Virus record (IMG/VR): IMGVR_UViG_648276668_000008
Span: 1 to 11,405 of that record
Strand: one strand, 5' to 3'
Source of the DNA: a virus
Taxonomy: Duplodnaviria > Heunggongvirae > Uroviricota > Caudoviricetes
DNA: 11,405 nucleotides
Shown here piece by piece: positions 512 to 11,383 of the stretch. The translations under genes and the position numbers were made by a program. Within the stretch, counting starts at the first letter, position 1. The number at the start of each line of letters is the position of its first letter. A model generated the notes under the pieces. That model saw only the letters and a program-made list of their open reading frames with translations, did no database searches and was not told the origin of the DNA.

Positions 512-618
512 TTGGTTGATAACCCTTTACTTACAGATACTTAGCGATACTTTTCAATACCTTAGCATTTTTTAAAACTACTGTATAAATACCTGTATAT
601 ACCCCAAAATACTTCTTT

Positions 619-669
619 ACGGTATCCTATAGGTATCCTGGAACAGAACAAGCGATTTTCCAGGATACC
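619..669. promoter_or_regulatory. Candidate integrase arm-type binding sites: tandem GGTATCCT-ATA-GGTATCCT plus an inverted copy CCAGGATACC
   Basis: The 21-bp block ACGGTATCCTATAGGTATCCT (619-639) recurs exactly at 11324-11344 near the other end. GGTATCCTGG (632-641) has its inverted complement CCAGGATACC at 660-669, about 25 bp upstream of the int start. Confidence 0.5.
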
Positions 670-692: not shown

Positions 693-2126
693 GTGAAATT
701 ATTCAGATTCTCTAAAGTAAAAATTGCAGAACTGCCAACGCCGGAACATGGACAGGTCGAATATGGTGATACGGAGGTTAACGGGCTGCGTGTCCGTGTA
801 GGTTCGTCTGGTGTGAAAAGTTTCTGCATTTCCCGTAAGCGTAACGGAAAATTTATTCGTGCAACGCTGGGGCGTTTTCCTGATCTGAGCGTGGATAATG
901 CCAGGGCTAAAGCTATGGAACTCCTTGGCGAAGTCGCCACAACGGGGATAAATCCGAACATAGCAAAGCGCACTAACAACAAGGCCATGATAACGCTGAG
1001 TGAGGCGATTGACGCCTACGTAAAAAATCGTGGCCACCGCCTGAAACCCTCCACAGAAAAACAGTACCGCAGCATATTACAGAATTATTCCGGTGACTGG
1101 ATGGCCCATACCCTCGCCAGTATTTCCCGCGAACGGGTGGAACAACGGCATAAGGCCATCACTGATGGGGCTGTATGGTTCGGTGCTGATAAAACCACGT
1201 TACGGGCTGGGGTTGGTACAGGAAGCAAGGCACAGGCCGATTTATGGGCGCGTGCGCTGCGTGCCGTGTGTCGGTTTGCGCATGATCATTATCGTGATGA
1301 TGCGGGTAATACTCTTTTACCGGATCCGCCGACGCTGGTACTGAGCACTAAGCGCCAGTGGCACGGAACGGTAAGAAAAACGGAACGTATCCGCCTGCAT
1401 GATTTTTCGCGCTGGTTTGCTGCTGTAGCAGCTGTACGCGACCAGGGCGAACAGAAAAGGGATGATATAGCGGTGACGGTATGTGATGCCGTGGAAATGG
1501 CGCTTTTTACCGGACTGAGAAAATCAGAAATTTTTGGCCTTACGTGGGATCGCGTGAATATGGGCGGTCGTTTTTTCTGGATAGACACCACGAAAAACGG
1601 GGATCCGCTCGAATTGCCGATCACTGATACGTTGCGGGAGATGTTCCGCCGCCGGCTGAAAATAAAAAACGCTGATGATGTTCTGGTGTTTCCTGGTGTG
1701 AAGGGCGTTATTCAGGAGACACGGCACATCATAGACCGGATAAGCGCGGCTACCGTTTCAGAGTCGAACGATGAAATGCTCTCCCCTGTACCATTCAAAT
1801 GGCACGATGCGCGCCGGACGTTCGGAACGGTTGCCGAACTGGTGGGTGTGGGCAATTACATCCTCAAGCGCCTGATGAATCACCGTACTATGCGAAGTGC
1901 TGACGTAACGCAGGGGTATTTACATTTTGGTGCTGATGAACTGCTGGAGCCAGCGTCACGGATAGAACGGGCAATTCTGGAACATGCCGGGCTGGTGGAG
2001 AGTAAAAAATCTATTGATGCGCAATTGATGGCGGTCTTAAACAACCTAAGCGAAGAAGAAAAAAGGAAATTAATTTTTTCCTTATCTACAGATGAGTGTA
2101 ACCAGTTATGGCAGAAAGAAAAATAA
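693..2126 (+). CDS. int: Tyrosine recombinase, P4-type phage integrase
   Basis: 477-aa ORF from GTG 693 with GGTGGGG upstream. N-terminus GLRVRVGSSGVKSF...TLGRFPDLSV...GINPN fits the P4-integrase N-terminal pattern. Catalytic-domain motifs: LFTGLRKSE (box I Arg), WHDARRTF (HxxR), GYLH (Tyr). First gene inside the att repeat. Confidence 0.9.
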   Translation: MKLFRFSKVKIAELPTPEHGQVEYGDTEVNGLRVRVGSSGVKSFCISRKRNGKFIRATLGRFPDLSVDNARAKAMELLGEVATTGINPNIAKRTNNKAMITLSEAIDAYVKNRGHRLKPSTEKQYRSILQNYSGDWMAHTLASISRERVEQRHKAITDGAVWFGADKTTLRAGVGTGSKAQADLWARALRAVCRFAHDHYRDDAGNTLLPDPPTLVLSTKRQWHGTVRKTERIRLHDFSRWFAAVAAVRDQGEQKRDDIAVTVCDAVEMALFTGLRKSEIFGLTWDRVNMGGRFFWIDTTKNGDPLELPITDTLREMFRRRLKIKNADDVLVFPGVKGVIQETRHIIDRISAATVSESNDEMLSPVPFKWHDARRTFGTVAELVGVGNYILKRLMNHRTMRSADVTQGYLHFGADELLEPASRIERAILEHAGLVESKKSIDAQLMAVLNNLSEEEKRKLIFSLSTDECNQLWQKEK

Positions 2127-2845
2127 CAACCCCTGATTATATCATTCACCTTTTTATACGTGAGTTATTTACTTACGGTGATAAAGCCTCTGTTGTACGT
2201 ATAATTAAACGATGCTATGACGATAAAAATAACAAAGGGATAGACGGTTTTACAGAGCTTCTTACAAGTGTAGTTGCGTATTTTGCAAAATCAGCGAATG
2301 CTACAGAGGTTTTTCTTTATTTTATTGGCTTTACGACAGAAAATAAAAAGTTTAAACATCCAGAATTTTTTATCCATCAATTACAGCAAATGGATACTAG
2401 AAAAGAATCTTTTTTTCAGATTGAAAACTTGCCACCAGGCGCAATTAGTGCGTTAAATTCGGCAATCTCACTGTATGCAATAGGAATGAGAAATAATGCT
2501 GATAATCTTGTAAAACTTGGAATATACTTGTTAATTTCAGGGCTTTTTGAAGGTTATCATGTGGATTATGTTTGTGATGAAATATCAAAGCAAGCTATTG
2601 CTGAACATCAAAGAGAAAAAGCAAGCAAACCAAGAAATCATTATTACAATGAAGTTATGCACGTAATTAAATTAACGTGGGAAAAGTACCCTAAAGCCAG
2701 TAAAACAGGTTTATTGAACGAGCTTTCTGTTTACTATCATGGGAAAGTAAGTAAAAACACTCTGGATAAATGGATTAAAGAATCAGGAGCACAACCACCA
2801 AGACCTGATAAATATTCTTCGTTTGAACTTGTTCACCCCCAATAG
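2108..2845 (+). CDS. Hypothetical protein; AT-rich cargo gene with no recognisable family
   Basis: 245-aa ORF whose ATG at 2108 overlaps the int stop by 19 nt. Visibly lower GC than the flanking genes. Mostly hydrophilic, no motif I can name. Confidence 0.6.
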   Translation: MAERKITTPDYIIHLFIRELFTYGDKASVVRIIKRCYDDKNNKGIDGFTELLTSVVAYFAKSANATEVFLYFIGFTTENKKFKHPEFFIHQLQQMDTRKESFFQIENLPPGAISALNSAISLYAIGMRNNADNLVKLGIYLLISGLFEGYHVDYVCDEISKQAIAEHQREKASKPRNHYYNEVMHVIKLTWEKYPKASKTGLLNELSVYYHGKVSKNTLDKWIKESGAQPPRPDKYSSFELVHPQ

Positions 2846-2978
2846 CTGGCTAGTGTATCTTAATAGCTGGCTATTAAGGCTAAATAACTGGTAACCTCCC
2901 CACAGCAACTGGCTATTGGGCTAAAAACAAAATACCCATTGATTGATATTTATCACCGTTGTTACTTAGAAGTACACG

Positions 2979-3197
2979 GTGATAGATATGAATTTAAAGA
3001 AATCTGATTTATCAACTGACCGCCTTACACGTGCTGAAGCTGCTGCCTACCTTGGCGTTAACAATCAAACGCTGGCGAACTGGGCCTGTACTGGCAAGGT
3101 AAAAATCCCTTTCCATAAGCTGGGGCGCAAAGTGCTGTATATGCGCACTGATCTCGATGCTTATCTTGCATCCACTCGCAGAACGCAGACGGTGTAA
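2979..3197 (+). CDS. Excisionase/AlpA-type helix-turn-helix DNA-binding protein
   Basis: 72 aa. LTRAEAAAYLGVNNQTLANWACTGKVKIPFHKLGRKVLYMRTDLDAYL fits the excisionase-family HTH pattern. Start is GTG 2979 or ATG 2988. Confidence 0.8.
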   Translation: MIDMNLKKSDLSTDRLTRAEAAAYLGVNNQTLANWACTGKVKIPFHKLGRKVLYMRTDLDAYLASTRRTQTV

Positions 3198-3544
3198 GGG
3201 GGAGTGATGGCACATAAAACAAAGGCGACCGTAGAGGGCCGCCAGTGGCATAACACTAAACTTGAGCATATCCAGAATACCAGGTTGTTGGCTGGTGGGC
3301 AATGCTATCAGTCTGGCTCGATTCGCTGCCATGCCTGCAATGAGCGTATTTTCCTAGAATACTCTTTAAGGTACTTCTCAAGGATAAACGCACATGGTGC
3401 GAATCTCTCCGGTTCATGTTCGTTTACCGCATTTTTGCGTTGTTTTTTCTTGGATGAGGATAATTTCTTTAATGATTTGTCAGTCATCGTAGATACCTGT
3501 AACCCTGTGCGCCACAGTTCACCGCACCACGGCGCTGGTGATGG

Positions 3545-3724
3545 TTACTCCTGCTCTTTGGCCTTGCGACGCTGGCGGTATTCAACTTCTCGCTTTAATG
3601 CTGCTGTTACAAACTGCCCTGTACTTTCACCAGGCATTTTTACCGCCTCAACATTGTTCATAACTTCATGCGGAACCCTTGCCGCAACTGTTTGTGATTT
3701 TGCGTTTACTGCTTTTGTCGCCAT
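3545..3724 (-). CDS. Small ribbon-helix-helix (CopG/Arc-like) putative repressor, 59 aa; below the ORF-track cutoff
   Basis: Minus-strand ATG at 3724-3722 with AAGGGG 8 nt upstream; stop TAA at 3547-3545. Translation MATKAVNAKSQTVAARVPHEVMNNVEAVKMPGESTGQFVTAALKREVEYRQRRKAKEQE shows a strand / helix / G-x-S-T / helix pattern typical of RHH proteins. It abuts the palindromic operators. Confidence 0.6.
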   Translation of the reverse strand: MATKAVNAKSQTVAARVPHEVMNNVEAVKMPGESTGQFVTAALKREVEYRQRRKAKEQE

Positions 3725-3774
3725 GTTGTGTACCCCTTACAAAAAACAAATGCAGTATGCAGGAAAAAAAATAA

Positions 3775-3826
3775 GTGTTCAACACTTGACGTGTTTAACA
3801 CCTGGATTTAAATTGGTGTTCAACAC
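3775..3826. promoter_or_regulatory. Divergent promoter/operator region with three 11-bp palindromes GTGTT(C/T)AACAC
   Basis: Copies at 3775-3785, 3791-3801 and 3816-3826. A sigma70-like -35 TTGACG (3786-3791), 17-bp spacer and -10 TAAATT (3809-3814) read toward the Icd-like gene and are overlapped by the palindromes. Confidence 0.6.
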
Positions 3827-3923
3827 CTTGTTGATGCAAGGTGCAGAAACGACGAAACCCGGCAGTGCGCTAACACTAACCGGGCTTCTAACCACCAACG
3901 ATAGAAAGCGTATCGAGGTAGCT

Positions 3924-4127
3924 ATGAGAAATCATACCACACACCCGCAAGGGCGGGACTCGCACGACCTGAATAAATACATCTGGCGTTTTATCGCCCT
4001 GAGCACCGCACAACCGCGCGTGATTCACATCGTGGCCACCAGCGAACAGGAAGCACGCCAGCAATCCCCGGCTGGCTGCGTGATGGTATTCGCCGCCCGT
4101 ATTCGTCAGGGGGTGTGCCATGCCTGA
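3924..4127 (+). CDS. Icd-like small protein (P4-type host cell division inhibitor family)
   Basis: 67-aa ORF, ATG 3924 with GAGGTA upstream. KYIWRFIALSTAQPRVIHIVATSEQEARQQ...VMVFAARIRQG resembles Icd-like proteins of P4-type elements (from memory). It is the in-frame C-terminal end of the 307-aa track ORF 3204..4127, which I regard as spurious. Confidence 0.65.
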   Translation: MRNHTTHPQGRDSHDLNKYIWRFIALSTAQPRVIHIVATSEQEARQQSPAGCVMVFAARIRQGVCHA

Positions 4128-4440
4128 TATGTCAAATTACCAGTACCTGATTAATCCGCATTTTAACTGTGAGCATGATATTGCTAAAAAGGTTTATTCC
4201 GCTGCGGATGGGGCTACTGACAATATATCAATGGCTGTTGCGTCAATTGGTAGCCTGATGTGGCATGCGTCAGAAAATGAGGAATATGACGAAAAGGCCA
4301 TGCGCATTGATATGGGTAATATCGGTTTGTTACTGGCAATGCTTGGACATTTTGATATTTCGTTACGGTGCACCATTGAAAATGCCACAGATGCATTAAA
4401 TGCTATAAAGAAAGCGAATACTGATTCAAATCGGGGATAA
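4120..4440 (+). CDS. Hypothetical protein
   Basis: 106-aa ORF; AGGGGG upstream; start overlaps the Icd-like stop (ATGCCTGA). Acidic, no recognisable motif. Confidence 0.55.
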   Translation: MPDMSNYQYLINPHFNCEHDIAKKVYSAADGATDNISMAVASIGSLMWHASENEEYDEKAMRIDMGNIGLLLAMLGHFDISLRCTIENATDALNAIKKANTDSNRG

Positions 4441-4446
4441 ATAATC

Positions 4447-4746
4447 ATGAGAACGTATTTATCTGGCTTGACTGCCAGCGGTTATGCACACCCCCAAATT
4501 ATCCCCGGCGCTATTTATCTGGATAAGAACGGTAACAGAGTAACGGTAAAAGAACTGATGTTTGACCGTGTGTATTTTATTCGTGATGGCTATTCATTTC
4601 ATAGTTCGCTGAACGTGGAGATCTTTATTAGCAGATTCAGGCGGGAAATCCCGCTTTCCAGAAATAACCATGTGTCACGTGTGAATGTGGATAAAAAACT
4701 ACAGGAACTGAAAAACATGATTGCCGCGTGGAGAGAGCAGAAATGA
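4447..4746 (+). CDS. Hypothetical protein
   Basis: 99-aa ORF with GGGGAT upstream; its stop overlaps the primase ATG (ATGA at 4743-4746). Confidence 0.55.
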   Translation: MRTYLSGLTASGYAHPQIIPGAIYLDKNGNRVTVKELMFDRVYFIRDGYSFHSSLNVEIFISRFRREIPLSRNNHVSRVNVDKKLQELKNMIAAWREQK

Positions 4747-6560
4747 AAAAAGCGCCAAATTTAAAACACCAGCCACGTGACAAAATGACGGAAGTCATCA
4801 TTTTTGCGGGTAGTGATGCGTGGGCACATGCGAAGCAGTGGCAGGAACAGGACGGGCGACTGGCTGGCGATAACGTGCCTCCTGTCTGGCTTGGAGAGCA
4901 ACAACTTGCCGAACTGGACAACCTGCAAATCGTACCGGACGGACGCTATCGCGTGCGTCTCTATCAGGCGGGGTTATTGCGTCCGGGGCTTGTTAATACC
5001 ATCGGGCAGAAACTGGCAGCGGCAGGTGTCAGGGATGCTGATTATTACCCTGAAGGAATGCACAGCCAGAAACGGGAGAACTGGCGCGAATATCTGGAAC
5101 GTGAACGGGCAGAGCAGGCGGAAAAGAAAAAGGTAGTTGAACTGCCTGTAAAGAAAAAAGAGCGGGTAAAAGACGATAACGCTTCATCACTGGCGCTTAA
5201 CCAGATGGGAGCAAGTCAACGCGGCGAAGTTCTCCTGGCACATTATGGCGGTGAACTGGCGATTCATGCTGACTCTGACACTGTTCACCATTACAACGGC
5301 GTTGTATGGGAGCCAGTACAGGATAAAGAATTACAGCGAGCTATGGCACAGATTTTCATTGATGCGGAGATCAGCTATTCGCAGAACGCCATTAAATCGG
5401 CGGTCGATACCATGAAGTTAAGTTTGCCTGTAATGGGGAATACAGCCCGTAACCTGATTGGATTCAGTAACGGGGTATTTGATACCAGAACAGGTAATTT
5501 TCGGGGGCATAACAAAAACGACTGGTTGTTAATTGCCAGTGAATTACCTTTCAGCCCACCAGCAGAGGGGGAAACACTGGCAACACATGCGCCGAATTTC
5601 TGGAAGTGGTTACGCCGTTCGGTGGCTGAGAATGACCGCAAGGCAGATCGCGTACTGGCGGCATTATTCATGGTGCTGGCGAACCGGTACGACTGGCAGT
5701 TATTCATTGAGGTAACAGGGCCGGGGGGAAGTGGTAAAAGCGTGATGGCGGAGATTTGCACCATGCTGGCGGGTAAGGCTAATACAGTATCAGCAAGCAT
5801 GAAGGCGCTGGAAGATGCAAGGGAACGTGCGTTAGTGGTTGGCTTTTCGCTGATTATCATGCCGGATATGACCCGCTACGCTGGTGATGGGGCAGGGATT
5901 AAGGCCATTACAGGCGGTGACAAGGTGGCAATTGACCCGAAACACAAAGCCCCCTACTCAACGCGTATTCCGGCAGTAGTGCTGGCGGTTAACAATAACG
6001 CCATGTCATTCAGTGACCGCAGCGGGGGGATCTCACGTCGTCGGGTGATATTCAATTTTTCGGAAGTTGTACCGGAGAACGAACGCGATCCAATGCTGGC
6101 GGAAAAAATAGAAGGTGAGCTGGCGGTAGTGATTCGCCATCTGCTTACACGGTTTGCTGACCAGGACGAAGCCAGACGCCTGTTATATGAGCAGCAGAAA
6201 TCTGAAGAAGCACTGGCGATAAAGCGAGAGGGGGATTCGCTGGTGGACTTCTGCGGCTATCTCATGGCGTCGGTAATGTGTGATGGCCTGTTAGTGGGTA
6301 ATGCTGAAATTGTGCCATTCAGCCCACGCAGGTATCTCTATCATGCCTATCTGGCTTATATGAGGGCACATGGGTTTGGTAAACCTGTAACACTGACGCG
6401 CTTCGGTAAAGATATGCCGGGGGCAATGGCGGAATATGGCAGGGAGTATATGAAACGGAAAACGAAGCACGGTTTGCGTTCAAACGTGACACTGACGGAG
6501 GAATCAGAAGACTGGATGCCATCATGTGTATCGGTCACTAATGACGACAGCAAAAATTAA
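4743..6560 (+). CDS. P4-alpha-like primase / replication initiator (D5/SF3-type NTPase); the satellite pri-rep gene
   Basis: 605 aa from ATG 4743 (GGAGAG upstream, ATGA overlap with previous ORF); the frame is open from GTG 4728. Walker A VTGPGGSGKSV and a possible Walker B LIIMPD. Followed directly by the iteron origin. Confidence 0.8.
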   Translation: MKKAPNLKHQPRDKMTEVIIFAGSDAWAHAKQWQEQDGRLAGDNVPPVWLGEQQLAELDNLQIVPDGRYRVRLYQAGLLRPGLVNTIGQKLAAAGVRDADYYPEGMHSQKRENWREYLERERAEQAEKKKVVELPVKKKERVKDDNASSLALNQMGASQRGEVLLAHYGGELAIHADSDTVHHYNGVVWEPVQDKELQRAMAQIFIDAEISYSQNAIKSAVDTMKLSLPVMGNTARNLIGFSNGVFDTRTGNFRGHNKNDWLLIASELPFSPPAEGETLATHAPNFWKWLRRSVAENDRKADRVLAALFMVLANRYDWQLFIEVTGPGGSGKSVMAEICTMLAGKANTVSASMKALEDARERALVVGFSLIIMPDMTRYAGDGAGIKAITGGDKVAIDPKHKAPYSTRIPAVVLAVNNNAMSFSDRSGGISRRRVIFNFSEVVPENERDPMLAEKIEGELAVVIRHLLTRFADQDEARRLLYEQQKSEEALAIKREGDSLVDFCGYLMASVMCDGLLVGNAEIVPFSPRRYLYHAYLAYMRAHGFGKPVTLTRFGKDMPGAMAEYGREYMKRKTKHGLRSNVTLTEESEDWMPSCVSVTNDDSKN

Positions 6561-6572
6561 ACTTATGGAATA

Positions 6573-6797
6573 ACTGTTCACCACTGTTCACCCTGTCATA
6601 AATATCTTTTATATCAGTATATTATAGGGTGAACAGTTATTTATGAACTGTTCACCAAACTATTCACTGTTCACCTTTTTGATTGTTTATTGAGCTTCAA
6701 GGGTGAACAGTGGTGAACAGTTGGTGAATAGTTTTTGTGAAACTGTTCACCCCTTAACATTATGAATTAAAAGAGAAAATATCAAAAGGTGAACAGG
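6573..6797. repeat. Replication-origin-like iteron array: at least 9 copies of ACTGTTCACC in both orientations around an AT-rich spacer
   Basis: Forward copies start at 6573, 6583, 6647, 6666, 6742; reverse copies (GGTGAACAGT) at 6628, 6702, 6712, 6788; degenerate copies near 6658 and 6723. AT-rich stretch 6593-6627. Sits between the primase and the next gene. Confidence 0.8.
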
Positions 6798-6847
6798 TGA
6801 AGGGTTAAAACGCAAAAATTTTAATTTACTGCTGTGAGATAAAGCCT

Positions 6848-7093
6848 ATGACAGCGAAGCACACAAAAAAATCACAATCGCACGCCCTTGATTTGACGGA
6901 ACACTGGTTAAGGGTGTCGATAAAAATCATCGACCGCAACGCCGGGGAAGGATATGCGAAAGCACATCCCGAACTGATTAGCGCATTCATGACAACGGCA
7001 GCTGCAAACTTTGCCACGCTGACAGAACGGGAGATTGCCGAAGCGGAACAGGTGACAACCATCAACGTTAAAACTGGAGAGCAGACAGCATGA
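6848..7093 (+). CDS. Hypothetical protein
   Basis: 81-aa ORF; stop overlaps the start of the SSB-like gene (ATGA). Confidence 0.5.
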   Translation: MTAKHTKKSQSHALDLTEHWLRVSIKIIDRNAGEGYAKAHPELISAFMTTAAANFATLTEREIAEAEQVTTINVKTGEQTA

Positions 7094-7431
7094 CAGCACA
7101 GATAGCGGCTTACGGGCGGCTGGTGGCTGACCCGCAGTTAAAGACCACCAGCAAGGGTACACAAATGACGATGGCTAGTATGGCGGTCCCCCTTCCGTGC
7201 AGCCAGGCAGATGACGGAACGGCGACGATGTGGTTATCCGTCCTGGCGTTTGGCAGACAGGCCGACGCACTGGCAAAACACCACAAAGGCGAACTGGTGA
7301 GCGTGGCGGGTAACATGCAGGTAAGCCAGTGGACAGGCCAGAACGGCGAAACGCGGCAGGGCTGGCAGGTTATCGCAGACAGTGTAATCAGTGCCAGAAC
7401 GGCGCGACCGGGCGGCAAAAAAGGTCAATAG
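7090..7431 (+). CDS. Single-stranded DNA-binding protein-like (OB fold only, no acidic C-terminal tail)
   Basis: 113 aa. GRLVADPQLKTTSKG...WLSVLAFGRQAD...GELVSVAGNMQVSQWTGQNGETRQGWQVIADSV parallels E. coli SSB GNLGQDPEVRY...WHRVVLFGKLAE...[22 protein letters not shown] (from memory). Confidence 0.7.
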   Translation: MTAQIAAYGRLVADPQLKTTSKGTQMTMASMAVPLPCSQADDGTATMWLSVLAFGRQADALAKHHKGELVSVAGNMQVSQWTGQNGETRQGWQVIADSVISARTARPGGKKGQ

Positions 7432-7529
7432 GGCCAGGCTACTGACGCACTGAACAGGGCAAAACAACAGTCGGGGAATGATGATCCGTACGGCGATAAT
7501 ATACCGTTTTAAATTCTGCAAATAAAAAA

Positions 7530-7558
7530 ATGCCGGAAGAAAATAGATTTTCCGGCAT
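7530..7558 (-). terminator. Terminator-like hairpin with a U-run only on the minus-strand side
   Basis: 9-bp stem ATGCCGGAA (7530-7538) / TTCCGGCAT (7550-7558), 11-nt loop. On the minus strand it is followed by TTTTTTTATTT (complement of 7519-7529); on the plus strand no T-run follows. Confidence 0.4.
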
Positions 7559-7729
7559 GCTACATAAATCCCGACCAAAGGAAGTAAATACATTAACACG
7601 AATTATCAGCACTGAAGTTGTCACGGCAGATTTTATACAACATTGCACTTGGTTGCATGTATTCGCATAGCAAATATCGGTGATAGCATATATCCACAAT
7701 TATTTTTAATGAATGCAAAGAGGATGCGT

Positions 7730-8770
7730 ATGGTTGATTTATATTCGCCTGCCCAGCTTGTGCAGGTGGCTAATGCTGAAGATGTGCAAAAAAAATTAAA
7801 TGCGTTGTTTACCAGTTTGTTTTTCACTCGCTCGGTAATGTTTGAATCGAGAGACATTATTCTTGATACGATCGACGATCCAAATATCCCGATCGCGGCG
7901 TTTTGCTCTCCTATGGTGGGCAGTAAGGTTTCACGAGATGAGGGATACGAATCAAAAACAATTCGCCCTGGCTATATGAAACCGAAAAGCAGCATTGATC
8001 CAAATAAGTTAGCTGTGCGCCCTGCTGGTGTGTCACCTGAGCAATACAATGCTTTTGGGGCGCGTAATATTAAAGTTAAACAGGCGATTGTAAATCAGGC
8101 TAAAGCTATTCGTGCACGTATTGAATGGCTTGCTGTTCAGGCAATCACAACGGGGAAAAATATCATTGAGGGCGATGGTATTGAACGTTATGAGCTGGAC
8201 TGGAATATAAAACCACAAAATATTATCACGCAGTCTGGCGGTGCTGAGTGGTCAGGTAAGGATAAAGAAACTTTTGATCCAAATGATGATATTGAGAGCT
8301 ACGCAGAATTTAGTGAGGGCGTCACTAATATCATCATTATGGGCGGTAATGTATGGAAGAAATACCGTTCATTCAGAGCGATAAAAGAGGCTCTGGATAC
8401 CCGTCGTGGTTCTAATTCCGAACTGGAAACGGCCCTTAAAGACCTTGGTGATTCGGTGAGTTTTAAAGGGTATATGGGCGATGTTGCGATTGTTGTTTAC
8501 AGCGGACGTTATACCGACGAGGACGGAACTGAAAAACATTTCCTTGATCCTGATTTGATGGTGCTTGGCAATACGGCTCTTCAGGGGATTGTCGCCTATG
8601 GCGGTATTCAGGATCCGGAGCTAATCCGAATGGGGCTGACTAAAGCCGAACTTGCACCGAAAAACTATATTGTGCCTGGTGATCCGGCTATTGAGTACGT
8701 ACAAACGCACTCTGCACCACAGCCAATACCGGCCCGCATCAATCGTTTTGTTACCGTTCGCATTGGCTAA
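7730..8770 (+). CDS. Major capsid protein, lambda gpE-like
   Basis: 346 aa from ATG 7730 (AAGAGG 6 nt upstream; frame open from 7643). Blocks ITQSGGAEWSGKDKETFDPNDDIESYA and LDTRRGSNSELETALKDLGDSVSFKGYMGDVAIVVYSGRY parallel lambda gpE (ITQSGGTEWSKRDKSTYDPTDDIEAYA; LDTRRGSNSELETAVKDLGKAVSYKGMYGDVAIVVYSGQY). Length is similar to gpE. Confidence 0.9.
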   Translation: MVDLYSPAQLVQVANAEDVQKKLNALFTSLFFTRSVMFESRDIILDTIDDPNIPIAAFCSPMVGSKVSRDEGYESKTIRPGYMKPKSSIDPNKLAVRPAGVSPEQYNAFGARNIKVKQAIVNQAKAIRARIEWLAVQAITTGKNIIEGDGIERYELDWNIKPQNIITQSGGAEWSGKDKETFDPNDDIESYAEFSEGVTNIIIMGGNVWKKYRSFRAIKEALDTRRGSNSELETALKDLGDSVSFKGYMGDVAIVVYSGRYTDEDGTEKHFLDPDLMVLGNTALQGIVAYGGIQDPELIRMGLTKAELAPKNYIVPGDPAIEYVQTHSAPQPIPARINRFVTVRIG

Positions 8771-8779
8771 GGGGGAGCA

Positions 8780-9121
8780 ATGGCTACTCATTACACTGAA
8801 CTCATGTCTGGCACTGAAGCACTGGTTACTACGCTGGGGATATTTTCAGCCAATAAAGGGATAATACCTGCGTTTACGCCACTGATGCAGGAAGATGCAA
8901 CTGGTGCGCTAGTGGTATGGGATGGAACGAGCGCAGGCAAAGCGGTTTATGTTTCCGCTGTACAAATCGACACAGCGAAAAAAACACAGGCACAGGTTTA
9001 TAAGACAGGTGTTTTAAATGTTGATGCTCTGAACTGGCCTGAGTCTGTAAAAGAACTGTCGGCAAAGGTTGCCGCGTTTGTTGGCTCAGGTATTTCTGTT
9101 CAGCCGCTGGCTCGTGTGTAA
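8780..9121 (+). CDS. Head decoration protein, lambda gpD-like
   Basis: 113 aa, AAGGGGGAG upstream. TPLMQEDATGALVVWDGTSAGKAV...YKTGVLNVDALNWPE...AAFVGSGISVQ parallels lambda gpD ([24 protein letters not shown]...YKSG...LWPE...AFAGTAISIV). Immediately follows the gpE-like gene. Confidence 0.85.
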   Translation: MATHYTELMSGTEALVTTLGIFSANKGIIPAFTPLMQEDATGALVVWDGTSAGKAVYVSAVQIDTAKKTQAQVYKTGVLNVDALNWPESVKELSAKVAAFVGSGISVQPLARV

Positions 9122-9132
9122 AGGGGGATACA

Positions 9133-9516
9133 ATGCAGAATCATTACAATGACCTTAAGCCAATTGCCGAAATGATGTATCCGGATCCAGCAGTAGAGGA
9201 ATTAAAGGCTATTGCTGACAAAATGCGTTTAAGTGAACGCCTTGTTGATATGAATCAGGTGATGGAAATTACTACCCTTAGCCGTCGCACATTGCTAAAC
9301 CTTGAGGCTCGCGGAGAGTTCCCCGAACGCGTACAGGTTACGGAAGGGCGTAAGGCCTGGTATTTAAGCGAAGTGATCGACTGGATAAACAATATTCCTC
9401 GCGCTTCTGAATATTGCCGCGTACCTGTCCCAAAAAAGCCAGATGCGGCGCTATGCCTCAAGATTGAGCGTGTACGCCGCAATGCACGGGATGGTCGCTA
9501 TAAGTTGATTGGTTGA
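9133..9516 (+). CDS. AlpA-family transcriptional regulator (HTH) with an N-terminal extension
   Basis: 127 aa, AAGGGGGA upstream. VDMNQVMEITTLSRRTLLNLEARGEFPERVQVTEGRKAWYLSEVIDWI fits the AlpA-type HTH pattern. Confidence 0.8.
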   Translation: MQNHYNDLKPIAEMMYPDPAVEELKAIADKMRLSERLVDMNQVMEITTLSRRTLLNLEARGEFPERVQVTEGRKAWYLSEVIDWINNIPRASEYCRVPVPKKPDAALCLKIERVRRNARDGRYKLIG

Positions 9517-9572
9517 TGAAATTAGGGCCCGTTCTGGCTGGCGGGTCCTTTCCGGCGATCCGGTAGGCTACG

Positions 9573-9614
9573 GGGCGGCGACCTCGCGGGTTTTCGCTAT
9601 TTATGAGCATTTTC
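9573..9614. other. cos site: lambda-type cosN (12-nt cohesive end GGGCGGCGACCT) with adjacent conserved sequence
   Basis: 9573-9606 matches the left end of phage lambda as I recall it for 34 of 34 nt (GGGCGGCGACCTCGCGGGTTTTCGCTATTTATGA), and 40 of 42 through 9614, then diverges. It lies ~120 bp upstream of the Nu1-like gene, the same arrangement as lambda cos-Nu1. Confidence 0.8.
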
Positions 9615-9732
9615 AGGGGGCTGGTGGTGGTTTTGTTGTTCGCTCTATCTCTATGAATAAGAAGAGAAAAATACAATCAATACACCAACCTGAAACAGTA
9701 ATTAAGTTGTGGTATCAATGAAATTGCACCTG

Positions 9733-10260
9733 ATGAACAAAAAAAACATGGCAAAAAGTTGCCGTGTAAGCGCCACTGCGTTTGATAAGTGGGGAGTGAT
9801 TCCCGTCGAGCGTAAGGGCCGTGAGGCATTCTATGATGTTGCCAGTGTAATAGATAATCGGGTTAACAATGCAATTAGCCAGATTACAAACGAAACGGGC
9901 GATATTGATGACGATGAACTTTTACGCGTCAGGATCAGATTACTGACAGCACAGGCAGAGGCGCAGGAGCTTAAAAACGAGCGCGAACGCGGCGACGTTA
10001 TTGATACAGAGTTTTGTATGTATGTTCTTTCCAAACTGGCGAGTCAGATTTCATCTATCATGGACAGCCTGCCGCTTACCATGCAAAGGCGCTTCCCACA
10101 GATGACTCCGGCTATGCTGGATGGACTTAAAAAGGAAGTGGCTAAAGCCTGTAATGCCAGTGCCGGAGTTGACGACAACCTCCCGCAGATACTGGCTGAT
10201 TACCTGATGGAAACTACCGGAAATGTGCCGGATAAGTTGCAGCCGAATAAAGACAAGTAA
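9733..10260 (+). CDS. Terminase small subunit, lambda Nu1-like
   Basis: 175 aa from ATG 9733 (frame open from GTG 9709). RLLTAQAEAQELKNERERGDVIDTEFCMYVLSKLASQISSIMDSLPLTMQRRFPQ parallels lambda Nu1 RLTRAQADAQELKNARDSAEVVETAFCTFVLSRIAGEIASILDGLPLSVQRRFPE. The N-terminal region (NKKNMAKSCRVSATAFDKW) also aligns with the Nu1 N-terminus. Confidence 0.85.
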   Translation: MNKKNMAKSCRVSATAFDKWGVIPVERKGREAFYDVASVIDNRVNNAISQITNETGDIDDDELLRVRIRLLTAQAEAQELKNERERGDVIDTEFCMYVLSKLASQISSIMDSLPLTMQRRFPQMTPAMLDGLKKEVAKACNASAGVDDNLPQILADYLMETTGNVPDKLQPNKDK

Positions 10261-10271
10261 CGTAGCGCACT

Positions 10272-10556
10272 ATGACAGAATCTGAATTGCTGGGATTAAT
10301 CCGCCGCGTTACCGGAATCAAACAACCATCAAGCAAACAGGAGGCCACGCAGCCGGACAGCGTGATAGCCGAAAATTACGCGCGTGTGGTGGCTGAGATG
10401 ATGCGCCGTGACGGTATCGAGCTTAACGGCGTGGATATGCGCGACATACGGATCAGAGTCCTTGAGTTGCTGGCATACCGTCGCCGTTCTCAACAACGGA
10501 GGGAGAGCGCGAAAAATACTTACCAGTGGAGGAAGCCGGAACGGTTGCGGCGGTAG
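10272..10556 (+). CDS. Hypothetical basic protein downstream of the small terminase gene; possible packaging accessory
   Basis: 94-aa ORF with an Arg-rich C-terminus and weak RBS. Sits where a large terminase would be expected, but is far too small to be one. Confidence 0.5.
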   Translation: MTESELLGLIRRVTGIKQPSSKQEATQPDSVIAENYARVVAEMMRRDGIELNGVDMRDIRIRVLELLAYRRRSQQRRESAKNTYQWRKPERLRR

Positions 10557-11345
10557 ATTCCTGATATTCAGGAAAACCACGAATCTGTGGGGTTTACTGG
10601 CGCGGTTACGGCGGTGACACGCACCGAGGCAGAACAATTACCGTAGGTTAAAGCGACAGTATTCACACCAAAGGCAGAAATTAGCGGTTAACGTAACTGA
10701 CTGATATTTTCGGGAACAGCCAACGGCTGAGGCCGGAGCTATAAAAATAGCTTTGGGTACAGTCCTCAGTTTTGAGGGATGTTAACCAACTGAATAATAA
10801 GCAAAGCTCAAAATTGAGTTTTGTATCTGCCTGAGTTATTTCTGTGCTAACTTGCTGATATTCCCGATAACGCAAAATTGCGTTGGCTGGTGGGTGAGTT
10901 GCAGATCTGCAACTCGACCATGAAATTACGGAAACTACCCGTAGTTTGGGTAGTAAGAGCAACACCCAGATTTTGGGGCTTACTCGCGATACCCAAATAC
11001 AGGGGATCGGTGGAAGAAATATCGTTTCTCATATGTGAGTACCGAGGGCGGAATTCCGCCTTCGGTTACTTATTGTGCTCATGCACAGGGAGGGGCGGGT
11101 CAAATCTCTGTACCCTGACGTCTTCCGGACTGCCAGCCCCATCGATTTTTTATACCCGCGAAAAATGAAAAACGCTTCACGCTGGTGGGTCTGATGCCGA
11201 TATGGGGATCCACATAACGGATTATCCGTGATCATCGACCAGCTATCATGTCGGATAGTTAAAGTTTCATGACAGGTATGATGTTGCGTAACTTGTTGTT
11301 TTTATACCTGCTTATACTCTGTCACGGTATCCTATAGGTATCCTA

Positions 11346-11383
11346 GAAAAAACGAAGGGGTCACGCTGTTAACGTAACCCCTT
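11346..11383 (-). terminator. Rho-independent terminator for the minus-strand tRNA
   Basis: Minus-strand hairpin AAGGGGT-(15 nt)-ACCCCTT (11355-11383) followed by CGTTTTTTCT; begins 8 nt downstream of the tRNA CCA end. Confidence 0.65.

Follow-up and report, generated by a model that had tools for sequence, protein, structure and literature searches.

A lambda-type capsid and decoration gene pair of a separate satellite lineage in a cos-type PICI of Escherichia coli

Lambda-type capsid and decoration genes (E and D) are already known from PICIs of E. coli: the pair was published in 2018 as c1499 and c1500 of EcCICFT073 (PMC6092414), and a capsid gene occurs in 21 of the 29 reference Gram-negative PICIs (PMC10111431). 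PDB entry 3BQW, available since 2008, is the crystal structure of a c1499-type satellite capsid protein, and RefSeq already annotates the exact E and D genes described here. Helper induction, replication and high-frequency transfer have been seen for EcCICFT073 only (PMC6092414). All DNA packaged for this 11.4-kb island is phage-sized, with no band of PICI-monomer size (PMC6092414), and deletion of c1499 or c1500 leaves transfer and interference unchanged (PMC6092414; the review PMC6893505 agrees). We found no later functional study of c1499, c1500 or 3BQW in the literature, where citations of 3BQW concern its use as a structural template. The preliminary description of the present locus took a satellite-specific coat protein to be a strategy unlike those of other satellites, which does not agree with the precedents offered by Ccm of SaPIbov5 (PMC8569155) and by the whole-capsid cf-PICIs. 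New in the present analysis are the satellite clade, the selection on the pair, its fixed gene order, the addition of scaffold and protease genes in relatives, and the copies embedded in helper genes.

The window (the whole stretch of DNA analysed, 11,405 nt, from IMG/VR record IMGVR_UViG_648276668_000008) contains a cos-type Gram-negative PICI of ~10.7 kb from E. coli, the features of which are collected in Table 1. A repeat search identified 55-nt terminal direct repeats with a spacing of 10,705 nt, in keeping with the size of repeat-bounded PICIs (~10-15 kb), and doubled motifs analogous to that in the left repeat are present at both termini of related islands. The layout is that of a classical Gram-negative PICI: the integrase (RefSeq labels the equivalent gene a tyrosine recombinase) lies terminally, and an alpA-type regulator as well as a primase/rep gene with the origin behind it share its direction. 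Since origins in PICIs sit immediately 3' of the replication gene (PMC6092414), the position of the iteron cluster, together with its repeats and palindromes, leads us to read it as the presumed origin. The second AlpA-like protein also matches PDB 8C3T (2.2e-10) and phrog_2790 (8.8e-49); the slot of its gene is occupied by a Nu3-like scaffold gene in CFT073-type islands such as L003 and L004. An ORF of the phrog_1561 type follows TerS in related loci too. Pfam and PHROGs scans of the window ORFs revealed no lysis or tail families. In the matching genome the island is chromosomal and adjoins a tRNA-Ile gene and IS elements.

Table 1. Features of the satellite island, in window coordinates
Feature	Position	Strand	Evidence or remarks
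Left terminal repeat	598..652	.	doubled 10-nt motif GGTATCCTATAGGTATCCT; a likely recombinase or att-flanking site
Tyrosine integrase	693..2126	+	Pfam Phage_integrase 3.9e-14, Arm-DNA-bind_3 2.9e-13
Small HTH regulator, in the slot of the PICI alpA gene	2979..3197	+	Pfam HTH_17 1.4e-11
D5-type primase/helicase (PICI pri-rep)	4728..6560	+	Pfam D5_N, DUF5906, Pox_D5
Iteron cluster, presumed replication origin	6563..6751	.	CTGTTCACC repeats and palindromes; repeat families D2, D6, D8
Single-strand DNA-binding protein	7090..7431	+	Pfam SSB 2.6e-16
E, major capsid protein of the satellite lineage, gpE-family HK97-fold, 346 aa	7730..8770	+	Pfam, PDB, PHROGs, AlphaFold; ATG at 7730, stop at 8770
D, head decoration (cement) protein of the satellite lineage, gpD/SHP family, 113 aa	8780..9121	+	Pfam, PDB, PHROGs, AlphaFold
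Second AlpA-family winged-helix protein, 127 aa, last gene of the E-D operon	9133..9516	+	Pfam Phage_AlpA 9.3e-9
cos site, lambda-like cosQ and cosN	9541..9617	+	cosN at 9573-9584, exact lambda GGGCGGCGACCT
Nu1-type small terminase (TerS), satellite lineage, 180 aa	9718..10260	+	Pfam Phage_Nu1 1.1e-24; phrog_57 5.7e-54
Conserved 94-aa ORF after TerS, no assigned role	10272..10556	+	phrog_1561 8.8e-49
Right terminal repeat	11303..11357	.	55-nt copy of 598-652

The E gene is preceded by an AGAGGA ribosome-binding site, and RefSeq calls an identical gene of 1041 nt. Our profile search identified its product as a full-length gpE homologue (Pfam Phage_cap_E, PF03864: E=4.8e-41, 141.3 bits, cut-off 22.9; profile positions 4-327 of 329), and in the PDB it matches 3BQW (E=1.8e-121) and, from end to end, lambda gpE (7VI9, E=2.6e-77). 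Identity to lambda E is 42%, and only ~30% in the N-terminal third; the two proteins are colinear, with indels of 1-3 residues only and no extra domain. The AlphaFold model of E (pLDDT 79.9) superimposes on 3BQW with a TM score of 0.89 and on lambda gpE with 0.82-0.86, and displays the predicted N-arm, E-loop, P domain and A domain of an HK97-type fold. D starts 9 nt past the E stop codon. It combines a profile score above the cut-off (Pfam HDPD, PF02924: E=3.8e-15, 56.5 bits, cut-off 29.1) with the gpD fold (TM 0.81-0.90, rmsd 1.5 A to SHP for the AlphaFold model), and its PDB matches include phage 21 SHP (E=3.4e-16) and lambda gpD (E=1.4e-12). D nevertheless has an N-terminal signature of its own, distinct, conserved and shorter than in lambda gpD or phage 21 SHP, as well as a conserved SVQPL tail. 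The N-terminus is the gpE-binding part of gpD. This distinct N-terminus and the constant linkage and order of the two genes (see below) argue for E and D being a cognate lattice-and-cement pair.

No portal, protease, connectors or large terminase were detected by Pfam and PHROGs searches with all sizeable ORFs of the window. Queries with lambda A, W, B, C, FI and FII in tblastn gave no match in the window, the flanks of which thus lack lambda-like late genes, and an HMM built from the gpC/Nu3 C-termini found no scaffold domain in it. The preliminary description, which had proposed lambda-type shell and decoration genes without a portal or protease, is borne out by these searches and by the matches of both proteins to gpE and gpD in profile searches and structure prediction, well past chance; its suggestion that portal and scaffold come from the helper is supported as well, since the island must obtain portal, protease and scaffold from a helper. 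A promoter and terminator scan around the E-D module gave nothing above shuffled expectation, so the mode of expression of E and D is presumed.

The cos site that had been noted is real: the window is identical to the lambda left end at 34 of 34 positions between 9573 and 9606, and the segment 9541-9617 shows 92% identity to lambdoid cos regions. Divergence from lambda begins past 9606, where cosB would lie, and TerS, which is 35% identical to lambda Nu1, 48% to N15 gp1 and 88% to its homologue in L003, is encoded downstream. The island thus has the helper-type cosN/cosQ, its own cosB and the specificity protein that characterize cos-type PICIs. In phmmer searches of the PDB, neither the 180-aa TerS-like nor the 127-aa AlpA-like protein matched an Rpp entry, and the same was true of the L003 homologue (RppA and RppC have 144 and 153 aa, respectively); we rejected the identification of either protein as Rpp and therefore treat the island as TerS-type. 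We found no second cos site in the window by blastn-short and repeat search; one is present in EcCICFT073, L005, L007 and L011. Lambda packages DNA between ~78 and 105% of 48.5 kb, and small cos replicons are packaged as multimers. These limits support the earlier claim that, as a monomer, a cos genome of ~11 kb is too small for a lambda head. Four copies of the island amount to 42.8 kb, or 88% of lambda, and the 22 complete embedded satellites (10.3-11.7 kb) would yield 41-47 kb when multiplied by four.

In a neighbour-joining tree of capsid proteins (own code, 200 bootstraps), 50 satellite E proteins form a clade apart from 66 lambda-like capsid proteins in all 200 replicates. Satellite E is ~42% identical to phage capsid proteins, with none above 45% among 50,697 phage records, and all 11 contexts that we inspected are int-alpA-primase islands. 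Based on the separate clade, the lack of a close phage relative and the island contexts, comparison of the sequences indicates that the presence of the pair in satellites is a matter of long-term retention, not recent capture. The E protein of the window belongs to a 346-aa sub-clade that is only 53-54% identical to c1499.

It could be argued that E and D are left over from a prophage, or from a more complete capsid-forming ancestor, and are decaying without a present function in this island. The lack of a phenotype of c1499 and c1500 would fit such a scenario, as would the deletion and fusion variants that we found (P0146 and P0005, and L021, which is a 4.1-kb remnant) and the relatives with protease and scaffold, which suggest a stepwise loss of head genes. 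We nonetheless consider it highly improbable, given the strong purifying selection on E and D over their full length (dN/dS 0.03-0.16; 0.039, 0.083 and 0.156 for E, 0.070 and 0.025 for D) and the intact reading frames of E in 77 of the 77 evaluable IMG/VR loci and of D in 77 of 78. E precedes D in 77 of 78 loci, at a spacing of 13 nt in 68 of them; the module is present in 395 of 5,426 complete E. coli genomes, and the clade has been kept across at least eight enterobacterial genera.

Several relatives carry further head genes. L003 and L004 encode a Nu3-like scaffold (C-terminus of phrog_53, 1.5e-9; our own HMM, 7e-6 and 1e-5), and in L007 and L013 an S49 protease and a scaffold have been added to the module. 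The assignment as Nu3-like relies on profiles, as pairwise BLASTP of the 137-aa protein of L004 and the 143-aa protein of L013 against lambda Nu3 was not significant. Such additions would be sensible only if satellite E really assembles. The module was also found, 98-99% identical, in satellites that reside within helper late genes: helper gene E is interrupted at codon ~80 in 34 of 80, the helper portal gene B in 8 of 80, and all 42 are co-oriented with the helper late operon. A back-up role for the module has been proposed for embedded satellites (PMC10111431).

We also identified natural reciprocal chimeras between satellite and lambda E (L012 and L084), with intact reading frames and a crossover in the conserved block LDTRRGSNSELETA; both reciprocal junctions were found. 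Judging from their sequences, these intact chimeras suggest that satellite E is structurally compatible with a lambda-type lattice and that capsid sequences are exchanged between satellites and lambdoid phages. The same recombination could be taken to mean that the pair does not make a shell for the satellite but acts on the helper or on other phages, as poison or modifier subunits co-assembling with helper E, as decoys or triggers of capsid-sensing immunity, or simply as a homology block for recombination into the helper head genes, and PICIs do interfere with helpers and carry defence genes (PMC6739421); the unchanged transfer after deletion of c1499 would also be expected. We give this explanation little credence: interference with lambda, for which Rpp accounts (PMC6739421), persisted when c1499 or c1500 was deleted, PADLOC gives no defence-family match for E or D, and neither matches any known defence or NCBIfam family. 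Moreover, a decoy or a homology block has no need for a co-evolving cement protein, nor for the scaffold and protease of the relatives, and the purifying selection spans both proteins in full.

The preliminary description went further and proposed that satellite E and D build a smaller shell, of T=3 or T=4, on the helper portal and scaffold, in which one or two units are packaged and the helper genome is excluded. A capsid homologue that acts in this sense is known, as Ccm of SaPIbov5 takes its place in the pentamers and gives rise to T=4 heads (PMC8569155), and small heads are also made by PmCI172, another Gram-negative PICI in which a capsid homologue occurs (PMC6092414; PMC6893505). If capacity scales as 48.5 kb x (T/7)^1.5, heads of T=3 and T=4 would hold ~13.6 and ~21 kb, into which one or two units fit, and the narrow range of sizes (10.3-11.7 kb in the 22 embedded satellites, 9.9-11.8 kb in repeat-bounded islands) is what a monomer per small head would predict, while multimers do not strictly require it. 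The negative data for EcCICFT073, furthermore, come from the other sub-lineage. Still, we regard a small shell as unlikely, and in the closest tested relative it is contradicted: EcCICFT073 has the same pair plus a Nu3-like scaffold, and yet only phage-sized DNA and no effect of the deletions were seen. The colinearity of satellite E with lambda E and the existence of intact chimeras speak against it as well, and the solved gpE-family capsids that we retrieved (lambda, YSD1 and Chi) are, as we take it, all T=7. Taken as a whole, the earlier account of a satellite with gpE and gpD homologues, dependent on a helper and limited by the size of its monomer, is supported; the step to a smaller shell is not, and the novelty of the strategy does not hold.

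The reading that we favour, and to which we assign slightly less than an even chance, is that E and D are a working shell-plus-cement pair that forms lambda-size heads on the helper portal and scaffold, serves as a back-up supply, and encloses about four packaged units. The late module of the island, E-D-AlpA-like-cos-TerS, would then include a functional satellite-lineage version of both components of the mature lambda shell, which consists solely of the major capsid protein and its trimeric cement. Upon induction of a lambdoid helper, the island would excise, replicate from its primase and iterons, and express E and D. Satellite E would then assemble on the helper portal gpB with the protease and scaffold gpC/Nu3 and chaperones into T=7 proheads of normal size, to be stabilised by the cognate D, as helper D probably misfits a lattice that is only 42% identical. 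Satellite TerS may read its own cosB and recruit the helper TerL, with cutting at the conserved cosN, and TerL could fill the head with ~4 tandem genome units (42.8 kb), as the EcCICFT073 data and the packaging rules of lambda would predict. With the pair, the satellite would have its own reserve of both bulk head proteins, normally redundant but of use once helper E or D is absent or in short supply. Such a benefit is proposed because sibling satellites carry the same module while interrupting helper gene E. The absence of a scaffold gene from the window and the low identity (~30%) of the N-terminal third of E to lambda E speak against this reading. The back-up argument does not explain why the pair is retained in chromosomal islands and in portal-embedded satellites, and the lack of a phenotype of the EcCICFT073 deletions fits redundancy and non-use equally well. 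A different possibility, which seems improbable to us, is that with their natural helpers the classical enterobacterial PICIs are partial capsid-formers, building satellite shells from E and D (and, in some relatives, with a satellite scaffold or protease) on stolen portals, maybe of smaller T and with one or two units, and that the negative result for EcCICFT073 is an artefact of the non-cognate helpers lambda and phi80. If this is true, they would stand, both in function and in evolution, between capsid-stealing PICIs and cf-PICIs.

The pair is retained in hundreds of E. coli genomes under strong purifying selection, and yet no phenotype has been found for it. Should E and D indeed form heads specified by the satellite, the islands would travel in particles with a coat unlike that of the helper. 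The cargo of the islands includes virulence and defence genes. A changed coat could influence how stable the particles are and how capsid-sensing defence systems recognize them, and it could bear on the design of delivery vehicles based on PICIs.

Among the systems described so far, EcCICFT073 and the classical cos PICIs (PMC6092414, PMC6739421) are most similar in layout, with int, alpA, and primase plus origin followed by the capsid and decoration genes; further features in common with EcCICFT073 are a size of ~11 kb, a foreign cosB combined with lambda-like cosN/cosQ and, as predicted for the window, a lambdoid helper. The structure of the c1499-type protein (3BQW) and the predicted structure of the window E are close (TM 0.89) at 53% identity. 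The two islands differ in the gene after D, which encodes an AlpA-like HTH protein in the window and a Nu3-like 137-aa protein in EcCICFT073, in the small upstream ORF of phrog_3255, which the window lacks, in packaging specificity (full-length Nu1-type TerS versus the 144-aa Rpp) and in the number of cos sites (one versus two). The att site of the window is absent from those listed for classical Gram-negative PICIs in Table S1.

Helper-embedded PICIs (HE-PICIs) of the 11capE type (PMC10111431) share the E-D-AlpA-like(-TerS) module at 96-99% amino-acid identity, the size (median 10.9 kb) and the direction. They sit inside helper late genes and use other integrases, whereas the present island is chromosomal and has no lambda-like late gene in its flanks; we therefore do not count it among the HE-PICIs. 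A P4-like satellite was also considered and rejected, as the Pfam and PHROGs matches of the window ORFs include no Sid, Psu or delta/alpha family.

What SaPIbov5 has in common with the window is a cos-type satellite genome with a gene for a homologue of the helper major capsid protein. For Ccm it has been proven that the protein takes up the pentamer positions and converts the prolate heads of phi12 into T=4 heads (PMC8569155), but it belongs to a different capsid-protein family than E and has no decoration partner; redirection of head size is thus demonstrated for SaPIbov5, while in the E. coli relative EcCICFT073 it was tested and not seen. The cf-PICIs, e.g. EcCIEDL933 (bioRxiv 10.1101/2022.09.08.507074), likewise have a capsid protein of their own in a clade apart from the phage homologues. 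In addition to portal, protease and head-tail connectors, they have HNH and both terminase subunits, and the capsids that they make are small, whereas Pfam, PHROGs and tblastn reveal only E, D and TerS in the window, which we accordingly do not classify as a cf-PICI. Finally, in comparison with lambda gpE and gpD and phage 21 SHP, the satellite proteins belong to the same families and folds and are colinear from end to end, at 42% identity for E and 36-40% for D, but the order of the genes is inverted: E precedes D in satellites, whereas D precedes E in lambda and prophages.

The preliminary description of the window placed a lambda-type capsid gene (E) and a decoration gene (D) at 7730-9121, and these coordinates proved exact; RefSeq annotates the two genes alike in near-identical E. 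coli islands. The E protein matches Pfam Phage_cap_E (E-value 4.8e-41) and the crystal structure 3BQW (1.8e-121) and aligns end to end with lambda gpE (2.6e-77), and D matches Pfam HDPD (3.8e-15), phage 21 SHP (3.4e-16) and lambda gpD (1.4e-12). Both families and both folds were thus recovered by the profile searches and structure prediction against gpE and gpD that had been proposed as a check; the AlphaFold models, made from family alignments, reached TM 0.89 against 3BQW and 0.82-0.86 against lambda gpE for E, and TM 0.81-0.90 with an rmsd of 1.5 A against SHP for D. As had also been claimed, no portal or protease was found in the island by Pfam, PHROGs and tblastn searches with lambda head proteins, and these searches, together with a scaffold HMM, likewise found no scaffold, large terminase or connector in the window. 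The observation of satellite-borne E and D is confirmed in full. The protein database also contains fusions (entries P0005, 463 aa; P0077, 470 aa; P0146, 194 aa), namely two E-D fusions (PF03864+PF02924), one of the satellite type and one of the lambda-like type with five members, and a D::TerS fusion (PF02924+PF07471), all of which may have arisen by deletion, by read-through or from errors in sequencing.

All genes of the window run one way, in a mobile element bounded by direct repeats with a spacing of 10,705 nt. Just within each island end these repeats hold a doubled 10-12-nt motif (GGTATCCTATAGGTATCCT in the window). The ends of seven related loci (L002, L003, L004, L005, L007, L011 and L013) likewise carry doubled 10-12-nt motifs, which differ by integrase type and are present in chromosomal and helper-embedded islands alike; a doubled motif of this kind has been given as unique to helper-embedded PICIs (HE-PICIs; PMC10111431). 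The 245-aa ORF right after the integrase gene, in a stretch of low GC (33-35%, against 43-57% elsewhere), has no match in Pfam, PHROGs, PADLOC or NCBIfam, and is likely an accessory or cargo gene. The conserved 94-aa ORF always follows the satellite small terminase gene (TerS), at the place taken in lambda by the beginning of gene A; its weak PADLOC match to BrxA (E-value 0.0027) is probably noise. The 298-nt gap 5' of E holds a GC-rich hairpin (GCCGGAA...TTCCGGC); with an A-run before it on the + strand, it reads as a minus-strand intrinsic terminator. In the CFT073-type islands, + strand terminator hairpins (GCCGGAGAAATCCGGCTTTTTT) flank the E-D-scaffold block.

Features of the window and of related loci (L handles)
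Locus	Feature	Position	Basis
Window	direct repeats bounding the island	598-652, 11303-11357	repeat search
Window	tyrosine integrase	693-2126	Pfam/PHROGs
Window	245-aa ORF	2108-2845	
Window	small HTH regulator	2979-3197	Pfam/PHROGs
Window	D5-type primase/helicase	4728-6560	Pfam/PHROGs
Window	iteron cluster, directly after primase/helicase gene	6563-6751	repeat search
Window	SSB	7090-7431	Pfam/PHROGs
Window	GC-rich hairpin	7525-7558	
Window	gene E, 346 aa	7730-8770	
Window	gene D, 113 aa	8780-9121	
Window	AlpA-family protein	9133-9516	Pfam/PHROGs
Window	similarity to lambdoid cos regions	9541-9617	
Window	match to lambda left end	9573-9606	
Window	Nu1-type small terminase (TerS)	9718-10260	Pfam/PHROGs
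Window	conserved 94-aa ORF, phrog_1561	10272-10556	PHROGs
L005	direct cos-like copies	8666-8743, 11437-11514	
L007	direct cos-like copies	9471-9554, 12770-12853	
L011	direct cos-like copies	9643-9712, 12091-12160	
L003	terminator hairpins, + strand	8017, 8381, 10654	
L003	candidate Nu3-like scaffold, 137 aa, after D	10239-10652	
L004	candidate Nu3-like scaffold, 137 aa, after D	10238-10651	
L007	candidate S49 (gpC-like) protease, after D	11409-12752	
L013	candidate S49 (gpC-like) protease, after D	11418-12659	
L013	separate candidate scaffold-like ORF, after D	12652-13083	
L003	phrog_3255 ORF	8617-8823	
L004	phrog_3255 ORF	8617-8823	
L005	phrog_3255 ORF	9789-10001	
L007	phrog_3255 ORF	9774-10001	
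L013	phrog_3255 ORF	9765-10004	
L012	chimeric E gene	2801-3829	
L021	remnant of portal-embedded satellite	3076-7671	
L084	chimeric E gene	10001-11080	

The lambda cos site ascribed to the satellite is genuine: it agrees with the lambda left end at 34/34 positions, cosN included, lies in a region 92% identical to lambdoid cos regions, and diverges from lambda cos at the place expected for cosB. TerS is of the full Nu1 type (35% identical to lambda Nu1) and stands far from its phage counterparts, much as E does. Only one cos site was found in the window by blastn-short and a repeat search, and a phmmer comparison of TerS-like and AlpA-like proteins with PDB detected no homologue in the window of Rpp, the packaging-specificity and interference protein of EcCICFT073, the closest tested relative. 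In several relatives (L005, L007 and L011) the E-D(-C) module lies between two direct cos-like copies, an arrangement reminiscent of cos1 and cos2 of EcCICFT073; L002 and L003 have an inverted cos-like copy 3' of TerS instead.

When 116 full-length proteins of the gpE family were placed in a neighbour-joining tree, 50 of them formed one satellite clade (bootstrap 200/200), with 47-100% identity internally and 32-59% to lambda-like proteins outside. Across 50,697 records, window E shares at most 45% identity with the capsid protein of any phage, and D is distant from its phage counterparts to a similar degree. All 11 clade contexts inspected (from Escherichia, Serratia, Edwardsiella, Salmonella, Lelliottia and one metagenome) are int-alpA-primase islands of 9.9-11.8 kb. 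Many complete E. coli genomes contain islands near-identical to the window's, and the E-D pair is present in 395 of 5,426. The dN/dS values of 0.039, 0.083 and 0.156 for E (comparisons without saturation at synonymous sites) and of 0.070 and 0.025 for D point to strong purifying selection on both genes, and the reading frame is intact in 77/77 (E) and 77/78 (D) evaluable IMG/VR loci. That the pair is a relic is contradicted by these selection and frame data, and we consider it very improbable. E precedes D in 77 of 78 loci, mostly with a spacing of 13 nt, whereas lambda and lambdoid prophages have D before E; satellite D is set apart by a conserved N-terminus of its own and by an SVQPL tail.

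Across the islands compared the head module takes three forms: E-D-AlpA-like as in the window; a small ORF, E, D and a 137-aa protein in the CFT073-type islands L003 and L004; and a form with an added complete S49 protease in the Lelliottia-type L007 and L013. For the 137-aa proteins, the match is to the Nu3-like C-terminal section of head protease/scaffold profiles (phrog_53, E-value 1.5e-9) and to an HMM of gpC C-termini built here (7e-6 and 1e-5), which has no match anywhere in the window; L013 has an additional, separate scaffold-like protein (2.5e-13). These profile matches suggest candidate scaffold and protease functions for the genes after D, of which we found no description in the literature searched. 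A conserved 68-79-aa ORF (phrog_3255, no assigned function) overlaps the E start in most satellite sub-clades, and is absent from the window and L002.

We mapped lambda head proteins onto 80 loci obtained by an IMG/VR scan. The satellite lies inside helper gene E (codon ~80-82) in 34 of them, inside portal gene B (codon ~273-279) in eight, and elsewhere beside lambda-like late genes in one; the remaining 37 have no lambda-like late gene within the available stretch. The embedded satellites all have the orientation of the helper late genes, and complete copies (n=22) measure 10.3-11.7 kb (median 10.9 kb). They carry different integrases, yet their E-D-AlpA-like module is 96-99% identical to that of the window, which makes the window island a chromosomal sibling of the HE-PICIs of PMC10111431. 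In one locus, L021, a portal-embedded satellite is reduced to a remnant of 4.1 kb: integrase and primase are gone, and what is left is part of SSB together with E and D, the AlpA-like gene, TerS and the conserved 94-aa ORF; here the head and packaging module outlasts the deletion of the remaining satellite. Two loci have chimeric E genes that are reciprocal recombinants of satellite and lambda E: L012 joins lambda E residues 1-235 to window-type 236-346, followed by satellite D, and L084 joins window-type residues 1-240 to lambda 241-341, with lambda FI and FII coming next. In both, the crossover falls in the most conserved block of E, LDTRRGSNSELETA, and the pair has the look of both junctions of a cointegrate between satellite and helper, although L012, being a metagenome contig, may be an assembly chimera. 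Such recombinants would fit a non-structural role of E and D, as poison subunit, decoy or recombination homology; this role does not, however, fit the co-evolving cement, scaffold and protease, and deletion of c1499 or c1500, the E/D pair of EcCICFT073, gave no relief of interference; we think this role improbable.

The mature lambda shell without its portal consists of two proteins, the major capsid and the decoration protein, and exactly these two are encoded by the genes that the satellite retains. Five observations argue that satellite E would build a lattice and need the satellite's own D as cement: E and D are under strong selection, they are strictly linked, D has a distinct N-terminus, relatives carry a cognate scaffold or protease, and embedded copies point the same way as helper late transcription. 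The preliminary description had envisaged a smaller, satellite-specific head built on helper parts, for which there is precedent in SaPIbov5 Ccm (PMC8569155) and in the small heads of PmCI172 (PMC6092414, PMC6893505), and which the narrow range of island sizes favours somewhat. However, when tested in EcCICFT073 (11.4 kb) such a shell was not seen: there was no monomer band, packaged DNA was only phage-sized, and deletion of c1499 or c1500 left both transfer and interference unchanged (PMC6092414), the interference being accounted for by Rpp (PMC6739421). The colinearity of E with lambda E and the chimeras also contradict a smaller shell, which we regard as unlikely. Four island copies amount to 42.8 kb (88% of lambda), within the limits of what lambda can package. 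A normal head size is best supported, and such heads would be filled with about four genome copies. We therefore tentatively favour the reading that the E-D pair is a self-supplied stock of shell and cement, which would normally be redundant and would become essential or advantageous once the helper's E or D is disrupted or in short supply, for example in the 34 E-embedded siblings. A back-up role for the satellite capsid pair has already been suggested (PMC10111431).

The element is a Gram-negative PICI, and every computationally testable defining feature of the classical cos type is found in it; the defining features of capsid-forming PICIs and of P4-like satellites are lacking, as are those of HE-PICIs in the window copy. 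With SaPIbov5 Ccm it shares only that a capsid homologue is encoded. From EcCICFT073 it differs in its E, just 53-54% identical to the c1499 type (the protein of strain CFT073 seen in 3BQW), in its full Nu1-type TerS and undetected Rpp homologue, in having one cos site and not cos1 and cos2, and in its att site, which is absent from the 2018 list (PMC6092414). A capsid gene is present in 21 of 29 reference Gram-negative PICIs (PMC10111431); the E-D pair in PICIs is already published (PMC6092414), and the supposed departure from the strategies of other satellites is not new. The present analysis adds that satellite E proteins form a clade of their own, that both genes are under selection, that their order is inverted, that relatives vary in scaffold and protease genes, that siblings of the island are embedded in helpers and that chimeric E genes exist, and the interest now lies in the reason why satellites retain the E-D pair.
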